IMG/VR virus record: IMGVR_UViG_3300013101_000012
Coordinates: 1 to 53,995 of that record
Reading direction: 5' to 3' (one strand)
Length of the DNA: 53,995 nucleotides
From: a virus
Lineage: Duplodnaviria; Caudoviricetes
Shown: positions 33,041 through 36,000 of the stretch, in pieces
Numbering within the stretch: the first letter of the stretch is position 1
Layout: each line of letters begins with the position of its first letter
Made by a program: the position numbers and the translations under genes
The notes under the pieces: model-generated
Database searches by the model: none
What the model saw: only the letters and a program-made list of their open reading frames with translations
What the model was told of the DNA's origin: nothing

Positions 33041-36000
33041 ATGTCACAATCAGCAAAAGTAAATGTCAAAGAGATTGACCAAAGTGTTCGGGTAGCTAGT
33101 TTTCCGGGTCTTTACAACGCTATTGTAATTCCTGCATATAAAGGCCCAATAAATAAACCTGTGATGGTGACTTCGGAAAATCAGTTTTTACGGAATTTTA
33201 CTCCAAATAATACTGTTGAGGTGGGATATGATTTATCTTATTATTCTGCATTAACTGTCTTAGAAAACACAAATAGATTATGGGTAGTTCGTGCTGCTAA
33301 TGAAGCAATAGCTTCTGGGGCAACAATAAGATCAATTGATTCTTCTGTAGAGTCTTCCACTTGGGAAACTGGGATGGAAGATCCCGAAGATTATTTATTT
33401 GATCTTGCACCAGACACAGTAGCTACTACACAGCAAACAACTATTAAAACCCATGCAGATATCGTCATTCCAGCAGAGGCTGAGGTTACAAATATTGCGA
33501 CAACGCCAGATTTTGTAACACCAGCAACTTCAGAAATATGTACGCTAACCTGCCCCCCTGACACATCTAATAACTTAAATAGTAAGTATTTTAACATGGA
33601 GATTTTAACTCCGGGCCTGACCCTAGAAACTCTTGAGATTTTCTTTGATACAGATGGATCTGGGGTAGCTGTCGGGATTGCTGATAGGGCAATTAAAGTT
33701 GTTACTACTACTGATGCTACTGCTCCAGCCGTAGCCGCCGCTTTGGAAGCGGCATTAAACTCGGACAATGGCGGATTATCATTTAATGTAACTAGATCTG
33801 GTAGTGTCTGTACTGTTTTATACAACGAAGCAGGTAATGTTAAAGATGCTATAGACGTGGACTCAACAGTTGCCGTAATAGTTACCCAACAAGGTGTGGA
33901 CGATATTTCATCACTTGATGGGGGATTTTTCATTCTTCAGGAAAACGCTGGAACTGTAGGTTGTTGGTATAATATCTCAGGAAGTACTATTCCTCCCACA
34001 GGCGCGACTTCTACAAATAGGCAAATTGAGATAACTACAGTTAATGCAGGATCTTCTGCTGCTGAAATTTCTCAAGATACTGCTTCTGCTATCTTGTTAG
34101 ATGGGTCGTTTGAGGCCACAGGGTTTTCTAATATTATAACTATAACCAATCAAGATGTTGGTGATCTACCAAATGCGGTAGATGGGAACACAGGATTTAC
34201 CTTTACAATTCCCGTAGAAGGTAAAAATGCAGAGTCATCTCTTCAAGGGAAGGGTTTTGAAATTCAAGACAAAGATGGGTCTGTAGGTATCTGGATTGAT
34301 ATTTATCAAGAACAACAAATTACTAGAATCCAAACAGTAGCAGATATCCCTGGAGGTCCACCAGTACCAGAAGTTACTGACTTTAGTGTCACAGGGACTC
34401 CAGTGGCGGGGGAGTACTTTACTCTTTATGAATCTGGATTAGCCCCTAGAGATATTTATTATGCTGTTGACGGTGGAGTTATAACCCCACCTGCTACAGG
34501 CACAAGCACACCACTTAAAGTAGATGTTATGTCTTGGGATAACTCTGCGGATGTTGCTGCTAAAACTGCTGCTGTGATTGGTGCTGACGGTAGTTTTTCT
34601 GCTACTAACACAGCAGGGACGGCACAAGTAGATACTCTACAGGTAACTTTAAATGCTACTGCTTTATCTAACCTTTATTTTGTTTTAAACAATGGAACAG
34701 ACGATATTACTTTTTGGTATGACCTAGATGGAACAGGGACTGCCCCTGCTGTTAATGCCACAGAGGTAGCAATCGCAGTAGTTACAGGTGAAACTATAGC
34801 TCAAGTATTAGTATTAACGACAAGTGCGGTTGATGGTATGGCCCAGTTTGGTTGTACTGATGATGCTGTGAGTATTCTAACTATCACAATGACTCCAACA
34901 GGACCAGTTACTCACTCTATAGGTAATTCAACCTTTACATTAGCTAATACACTTCTCGGTGTTGCAGGCTCTACTACTCTTGAGGTCACTAATGCAATTG
35001 CCGGAGATGTTCCCGACGCTCTTGATGGTATCGGAGTAAATGGTACTGGTTTTATAATTACAGTCACTATTCAAGGCCAAAATACAACTTCACCAGCATC
35101 TCTAGAAGGTAGTTTTTTCTACCTTTATCAGGCAGCCACTGAGACTACACTGGAAGAAAAAATAGCTGTGTGGTTTCAATTTGGGACAACACCTACTCCT
35201 GCATTTGATGTAGATGTAAATAGACAAATTATTGTAACAACAGTTGCCCCTGGGGACTCTGATGTTGTTGTAGCCAACAAGCTGCAATCTACTCTAAACG
35301 CTGACAACTTTTTCAGTGCAAGTGTTCTCGGAAGCACTCTTCTTTGTACAAGTGATAATATTGGTAAAACTCTTGATGCCACAGATGTATCTACAGGGTT
35401 CACTATTGAAACTCAACAAGAGGGCGTAGAAACACCTCCTGCAATGCTTTTACTCGATAGATATATCGTTGTGAGAACATTAGCTGCAGGAGCTTCTGCA
35501 GATGAGGTAGCCGCAGGGATAGCCGTATCTATTCAAGCAGACGATGAATACACTGCTAGTTCAATATTAGATATCACAACTGTTTTAGATAATGTTGCTG
35601 GGCTTCGCCCAGGAGAAACTCTAGATATTGATTCTGGTTTTATTGTTTTAGTAGCAGTAGAAGGTCTAGATGATGTCACAGCAATAGACGAAGTATTTAT
35701 TCTTTACTCTAGCTCCCCTGGTAAGTGGGGTGACTCTGTTTCTTTTACCTTATTGAATTACCTTGATGATCCAGACCAAGTAAAAATCGAAGGGGCATTC
35801 CAGATAGATGTTTATTACGATATGGTTTTACTTGAGTCCTTTATTTGTTCTAGAGATATTGCTGCCATTGATGGGTTTGGTAGATCAATGTTCATTGAAA
35901 ATGTGCTTGAAGCATCCGGCTTCATCAGGGCCATGAACAATGAAGGGATTGATTATTCCATTACACCTAGAAGTCAAAGTGAAATAACACCTCTTGGAGG

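Follow-up and report, generated by a model that had tools for sequence, protein, structure and literature searches.

The stretch of DNA analyzed here (the window) is a viral record of tailed-phage type (Duplodnaviria; Caudoviricetes; IMG/VR record IMGVR_UViG_3300013101_000012), a linear contig of 53,995 bases with an estimated completeness of about 50%. Its open reading frame (ORF) at 33041-36709, on the plus strand, encodes a protein of 1222 amino acids (aa), P0001, which is a T4-type contractile tail sheath. The phrog_23 tail sheath profile matches this ORF with an expectation value (E) of 9.2e-41, and T4 gp18 chains (3j2m, 9mkb) match sheath aa 976-1209 with an E of 3e-19; PF04984 alone scores 24.4 bits, under its 31.4 cut-off. 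The core of the sheath is made of residues 1 to about 130 and about 876 to the end. The 745-aa insertion between these two parts (residues 131-875) consists of six homologous units of about 110 aa, designated A to F and arranged A{B{C},D{E{F}}}.

Reading along the plus strand, the first strand of the outermost unit, A (A1, 33431-33481, aa 131-147), is followed by the first strand of unit B (B1, 33482-33532, aa 148-164) and by unit C (33533-33895, aa 165-285), which is contiguous and innermost in the first branch. Next come the body of B, without a first strand of its own (B2, 33896-34222, aa 286-394), and strands 2-3 of A (A2, 34223-34312, aa ~395-424). The second branch opens with the first strand of D (D1, 34313-34369, aa 425-443) and the first three quarters of E (E1, 34370-34624, aa 444-528), encloses the contiguous unit F (34625-34960, aa 529-640), and closes with the last quarter of E (E2, 34961-35077, aa 641-679) and the body of D (D2, 35078-35425, aa 680-795). 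The last two thirds of A (A3, 35426-35665, aa 796-875) complete the insertion. A first-pass annotation of this DNA, made from its letters and translations, had proposed essentially these boundaries; all of them convert to whole codons of the sheath ORF, the one correction being that A resumes at about 34223, a few residues before the 34241 originally given. That annotation had also called for the inner units to be excised and the reconstructed domains aligned. Rebuilt by script, the six units measure 112-135 aa and can be aligned over their full length with little gapping, pairwise identities being 17-34%.

Homology of the units was apparent from a phmmer search with B2 as the single query: B2 positions 5-27 matched aa 399-421 of the sheath, 9-79 matched aa 457-526, 78-109 matched aa 644-679, 5-108 matched aa 686-794 (E 3.4e-11) and 33-109 matched aa 799-875. 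To avoid circularity, a profile made only from the long contiguous pieces (C, F, B2 and D2) was searched against the rest of the sheath. It aligned E1 to profile positions 13-86 (29.5 bits), E2 to 86-117 (13.2 bits) and A3 to 45-117 (20.8 bits), the top score in 200 shuffles being 6.8 bits. A second profile, made from 124 units of other proteins (hereafter the family profile), was run on the sheath and placed C at positions 1-114 (71.9 bits), B2 at 10-114 (92.9 bits), D2 at 11-114 (70.1 bits), F at 11-111 (53.7 bits), A2 at 11-35 (12.7 bits within the full sheath, 21.5 bits by itself), A3 at 42-114 (27.2 bits) and E2 at 83-114. B2 and D2, which start at profile position 10-11, abut the preceding unit and leave no room there for a first strand. 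The pieces thus occupy complementary profile positions, each quarter of the profile therefore being covered six times, in agreement with the original claim that the units are nested and not in tandem. Judged by these coordinates, the discontinuous pieces flanking an insert (as in the A1-B-A2 architecture) are complementary parts of one domain, the inserts C and F are complete, separable domains, and only by last-in-first-out pairing can the pieces be joined so that no profile position is lost or duplicated. A regular expression for the first strand hits six of six sites in the sheath and two unit starts in another ORF; as the expression was derived from those six sites, only the two hits elsewhere are independent. 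A search for direct repeats in the DNA between 33300 and 35800 returned only short matches of 12-40 nucleotides, at chance level, with no sign of a recent duplication or of repeats on either side of F.

A sheath orthologue, P0004 (1157 aa, 48% identical to P0001), provides a natural version of the excision of an inner unit. P0001 and P0004 align collinearly, interrupted by a single long gap at about aa 526-648 of P0001 that corresponds to unit F. Unit E is contiguous in P0004, and the rest of the topology, A{B{C},D{E}}, is conserved, as is A1; the comparison with related phages advocated in the first-pass annotation thus spoke in favor of nesting. For A, B, D and E, the best cross-match is the unit in the same position (38, 44, 31 and 38% identity, respectively), for D only marginally so (31% vs 30%). 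Units are 25-44% identical between the two proteins and the core 60%. F is no closer to its host unit E than to the other units. Any unit signal was found in 8 of the best 120 listed sheath homologues and was strong only in P0001, P0004 and P0152. At the same sheath site, P0152 carries one unit, P0098 (which came from the exhaustive profile search described below, not from the homologue listing) two nested units, P0004 five and P0001 six. In the sheath P0154, about 70 foreign residues interrupt the single unit after its strand 3. The recursive insertion process invoked at the outset fares unevenly: relatives with one, two, five and six units fit stepwise addition or loss of whole units, but the DNA bears no trace of such events and F does not resemble E in particular.

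AlphaFold2 yielded a confident fold for unit B with C inserted, or B(C) (aa 148-394). With a 31-row alignment, including thirty collinear relatives (P0004, with its five units, and 29 proteins that stack two), the predicted local distance difference test (pLDDT) was 95.9 and the predicted template modeling score (pTM) 0.79; unit C lies above pLDDT 90. The detached first strand of B is a strand in the model (residues 2-6, block pLDDT 97). In each unit, strand 1 is followed by a 2-3 hairpin, strand 4, a long helix and then strands 5-7, and it is between these elements that the sheath has its three sites of insertion. When the model was compared with known structures (VIA-align), 4 of 50 rows spanned model residues 1 to 238-247 with only 62-89 residues aligned, the target being a single compact domain of ~70-100 residues. 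Such a long span with so few aligned residues is possible only if unit C is passed over, which indirectly suggests that B1 and B2 form one domain around C. A two-chain prediction of A3 (aa 796-875) with A2 (aa 395-424), with alignments for both, gave no answer (0.19 against a mark of 0.32) and counts neither way.

The best structural match of unit C was the protruding domain of the small A-1(L) sheath (8kee_A, residues 91-185; Z 9.7, root-mean-square deviation 2.3, 92 residues aligned). It was followed by the corresponding domains of the small sheaths of PhiTE (9cb9_A, Z 8.7) and Mu (9khy_a, Z 7.8), and then by T4 gp11, flagellin FliC (4nx9, Z 7.8) and FliD (6iwy, Z 7.3; other FliD, Z 5.5-6.3), Z scores below about 8 possibly reflecting just a common arrangement, according to the tool's own note. 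Foldseek found no match in the PDB at E≤0.001, the top one being 8fop_j at 2.0e-3. Sequence echoes were weak: the Milano sheath (8fop_T, 120-174) at an E of 0.004, and PF17481 (Phage_sheath_domII), which matched unit F with 14.9 bits (cut-off 31.4; E 0.037) and none of the other units. As the sequence matches to PF17481 and to the outer domain of small sheaths stay below family thresholds, homology of the unit to that domain is likely rather than established. An immunoglobulin (Ig)-like beta-sandwich was considered for the fold and rejected: in the model a long helix packs against the strands, and the top VIA-align rows are sheath, FliD, flagellin and ferredoxin-like alpha+beta domains. Antibody chains occur only in the weak tail of the Foldseek list (probability 0.04-0.18).

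No family in Pfam, NCBIfam or PHROGs covers the unit; its matches in the ESM Atlas belong to unnamed clusters only, and cluster look-ups yielded no names. No match to the insertion turned up when 50,697 phage records were searched by tblastn, and cultured phages match the whole sheath over the core only, with at most 39% coverage. A word-indexed protein search with aa 125-880 returned only the query itself. It took an exhaustive profile scan over 1.84 billion representatives to recover relatives, 2624 of them at E≤0.001 and 864 at E≤1e-10. The unit was found in flagellins, sheaths and baseplate-like proteins, and by these matches constitutes a real, widespread family. One of its members, P0002 (metagenomic, 1806 aa), is a giant flagellin, with Flagellin_N and Flagellin_C at its ends, FG-GAP repeats, and a variable region that holds nine units. 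With limits of E≤1 for P0001 and E≤10 for individual units, Pfam listed no flagellin family, in searches from which the HMMER filters remove the majority of weak matches. Matches at E≤0.001 to 29 viral proteins were obtained in BFVD, most of them uncharacterized, some baseplate-J-like or sheath proteins.

Topologies were counted in 150 listed hits out of the 2624. Ninety-two of these have no split unit and 58 have at least one, 22 of the 58 forming strictly balanced nests. The deepest nests listed are those of P0008 (metagenomic, 2271 aa), with seven N-pieces, a full unit and seven C-pieces, and of P0107 (metagenomic, 943 aa), with six N-pieces, a full unit and six C-pieces; every split in these two proteins is after strand 3. 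P0099 and P0128 have balanced nests of four N- and four C-pieces each. Among the hits listed, balanced nests reach eight deep. Where split sites differ along the chain, as in the window sheath and in a stretch of P0006 (N43 N83 F C86 C44, F being here a full unit), the order is last-in-first-out. In many seemingly tandem arrays only one unit has its first strand, and the stack of first strands upstream equals the number of bodies: counted by eye in five proteins, strands and bodies were 4/4, 3/3, 2/2, 3/3 and 3/3. An automatic count over 88 runs gave as many strands as bodies in 27, fewer in 61 and more in none; the automatic first-strand detector is insensitive, and several of the 61 short-count stacks can be made out by eye. 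P0003 carries a first strand on each of its units and is a genuine tandem array. Stacked first strands also turn up in short proteins (250-360 aa) and in many settings other than filaments. The nesting is less singular than the first-pass annotation supposed: the domain family as a whole is given to it, and so, more generally, are sheath proteins.

Profile coordinates, the lack of exactly F from P0004, the B(C) model and the balanced nests across the family all support the branched topology inferred initially, and we regard it as highly probable that the sheath carries six self-nested units as its outward-facing domain. According to this explanation, an outward-facing domain at the position of T4 gp18 domain I would have been multiplied to six units of ~110 aa, of seven strands and one helix each, whole units sitting in surface loops of other units instead of being strung in tandem. 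B would lie within A after strand 1, and C within B at the same place; D would lie within A after strand 3, E within D after strand 1, and F within E at the turn between strands 5 and 6. The chain would run outward giving one piece to each domain and return completing the domains in reverse order. Both ends of the 745-aa insertion would stay adjacent on the sheath core, and neighboring domain pairs would each be tied by two chain crossings. The likely result is a stiff, two-branched projection on each sheath subunit, which may have originated by stepwise gain or loss of whole units. We favor the view that this insertion is an exposed, fast-evolving decoration of the tail surface, probably dispensable, whose role would most likely be to adhere, weakly and multivalently, to surfaces of hosts or particles and/or to brace the sheath laterally. 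Points taken for an outer position are the structural matches to protruding domains of small sheaths and the relatives that hold one, two or five units at this site; points taken for exposure are the presence of the unit in the variable region of the flagellin P0002 and in two other structural ORFs of the window.

We further lean, if only somewhat, towards the idea that the unit defines a large unnamed "self-nesting" family, a general building kit decorating helical filaments and tail organelles. Its members would accept whole units in three of their own loops and form out-and-back stacks up to eight deep, with the window sheath as the first branched example. Since the two ends of a stack stay together, a sheath subunit, flagellin or baseplate protein could bear a long rigid projection anchored in just one of its loops.

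Several points weigh against the proposed architecture and its interpretation. The assignment of stacked strands to bodies presumes non-crossing pairing. The matches of the detached first strands to the family profile, all within positions 1-13, are weak: A1 (positions 2-11) has an E of 0.009, B1 (1-11) of 0.014 and D1 (1-13) of 0.0016, with Z=1. A2 aligned to positions 12-39 of the four-piece profile with a non-significant -0.9 bits. That B1 joins B2 in one domain around C is suggested indirectly, by the alignment ranges of the model, and not by contacts or an error map. AlphaFold modeling, which the first-pass annotation had put forward as a check, worked for B(C); single-sequence prediction of the whole insertion (aa 121-885) gave a pLDDT of 32.7, which is unusable. 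In the comparison with P0004, C and its positional counterpart are not mutual best matches, and from two orthologous sequences a gain of F cannot be told from a loss. The only hints of function, matches to carbohydrate-binding module family 5/12 in the outer insertions of P0152 (aa 117-159) and P0156 (aa 214-231), are sub-threshold, at 18.7 and 26.1 bits against a cut-off of 26.2. Finally, the 3′ end of the sheath gene is out of frame in this record. The C-terminus is continued in another frame at 36673-36885 (+), where PF17482 matches over its positions 47-104 of 104 (E 7.7e-5; 23.1 bits at 36673-36882 vs a cut-off of 26.9), and the last ~60 residues of the sheath are thereby displaced. In the orthologue P0004, the PF17482 C-terminal domain is in frame. 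The straight reading of P0004 and the PF17482 match in the other frame indicate that the record has a frameshift near 36670-36700, within a short tc-rich stretch; the shift may stem from faulty sequencing or assembly, or the gene may truly be defective.

If the architecture is as described, its role might yet be lateral bracing or cementing of the extended sheath, or simple shielding, and not adhesion. We consider this unlikely, while granting it more weight than any other alternative. The pTM of 0.79 for two domains suggests rigid coupling, and stability is among the roles of additional sheath domains proposed in a review of contractile sheaths (PMC9230969). Against it stand the 25-44% identity of the units versus 60% for the core in the two orthologues, indicating that units evolve much faster, and the variation in unit number from 1 to 6 among relatives; fast evolution and a variable number of copies are commoner in exposed parts that face the host than in a conserved lattice. 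A second alternative is that detached strands and half-units pair in trans, the first strands (perhaps A2 and E2 as well) completing domains of neighboring subunits to form an outer mesh, much as strand exchange links the sheath cores, in place of domains closed within a single chain. Strand exchange between subunits is established in contractile sheaths, flagellin outer domains are able to pair between subunits, and cis pairing in B(C) was read without a contact map, all of which counts in favor of this possibility. We nonetheless find it quite improbable: AlphaFold2 folds B1 with the monomer at pLDDT 97, N-piece and C-piece counts agree within single chains, and the stacked architecture recurs in 250-360-aa proteins and in many contexts other than filaments. 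The last alternative, a degenerate tandem array with no nesting, in which copies have lost parts or motifs recur by chance or composition, could appeal to P0003 and to the 92 of 150 listed hits without a split unit, but is very hard to reconcile with E1 ending and E2 beginning at profile position 86 (A2 and A3 likewise at 35 and 42), with B2 and D2 abutting the preceding unit without space for a first strand, with the absence of F as an exact unit from P0004, where E is contiguous, and with observed scores of 13-29 bits against a shuffle maximum of 6.8.

The self-nested reading of the window sheath has precedents. The domains of T4 gp18 are themselves nested, domain I in II, II in III and III in IV, domain I (aa 98-188) being described as a six-stranded barrel plus one helix (PMC3004832). 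The core of the window sheath is homologous to that of gp18, and its insertion, starting at aa 131, occupies the equivalent outer position, as matched by position. The nested domains of gp18 have different folds, one of each, whereas here one fold is used six times and nested in itself; relative to what is described for gp18, the window sheath would add four levels and a branch, making a chain about seven levels deep. Si3 of the cyanobacterial RNA polymerase beta′ subunit is a set of eight hybrid-motif domains nested recursively at six levels in a loop of a large machine (PMC13114784). The likeness is that of a small fold recursively nested within itself; Si3 differs in having an unrelated fold and host protein, a single copy per enzyme and a defined regulatory contact instead of a role in surface decoration. 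As gp18 nesting and Si3 self-nesting were already known, the window sheath is a variant and not a new kind of architecture. Multi-domain "type 3" sheaths have extra domains pointing away from the tube, at least five in large phages, with adhesion or stability proposed as their role; these domains are mostly Ig-like, in contrast to the alpha+beta unit described here, and the sections covered say nothing of homologous self-nesting (PMC9230969). A literature search for self-nested sheaths or for this unit family found no description, the supplementary model lists of the same review lying outside its coverage.

Small sheaths (about 500 aa, PF17481) have an outer domain that is the best structural match of unit C (Z 9.7, 8.7 and 7.8), in a single copy versus six here. 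The D2/D3 domains of FliD and the outer domains of flagellin are of the same fold class, at Z scores that may reflect a common arrangement only. They too lie on the surface of a helical filament, in a protein whose core is built from its N- and C-terminal ends, and in FliD D3 is inserted in D2.

Should the nested arrangement hold, it would illustrate a design rule by which a filament subunit carries a very large appendage with its assembly interfaces undisturbed, the chain leaving and re-entering at one point. It would also bring to light a sizeable domain family, common to phage tails and bacterial flagella, that has no Pfam, NCBIfam or PHROG name. Because first strands are stacked upstream in many apparent "tandem" arrays, naive domain parsing miscounts the repeats. 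On this reading, an uncultured T4-like phage should have a tail that is unusually thick and ornamented; sheath relatives with one, two, five and six units form a natural series for testing the role of decorations, and a fold that accepts whole-domain insertion at three sites, recursively, could be a useful scaffold for protein design.

The sheath gene sits beside the tail tube gene within a structural module. The tube gene (phrog_45, 36939-37481) lies downstream of the sheath and is followed by a baseplate hub gene (38234-39019), and genes for a protease and the major head protein lie upstream. An antisense ORF at 33391-33933, overlapping the insertion, is merely a product of mechanical listing and was discarded.

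The unit occurs in two other structural ORFs of the window, 46629-48926 and 50351-53995. The former has one contiguous unit at 48162-48491 (E 1e-5 with a profile made from the sheath only), and its C-terminus matches the head-decoration PHROG phrog_20658. The latter, open at its 3′ end, has two units, nested again, at 53012-53911. Numbered in the frame from 50342, an N-piece at aa 891-917 is weak (E 0.6), a full unit at aa 951-1055 is weak alone (E 0.05) and a C-piece at aa 1102-1190 has an E of 3e-15. The flanks between these pieces resemble a contiguous stretch, aa ~205-275, of the same ORF; the second half of the resemblance scores 88 (reached in 0 of 500 shuffles) and the first half is marginal (12 of 500). 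This may represent a second domain type split by the inner unit. Elsewhere in the window, ORF 14369-19501 (1710 aa) shows terminase large-subunit matches in its N-terminal part, followed by HNH, endonuclease, primase and helicase-type PHROG matches, and looks like a terminase interrupted by inteins or fused to other modules.

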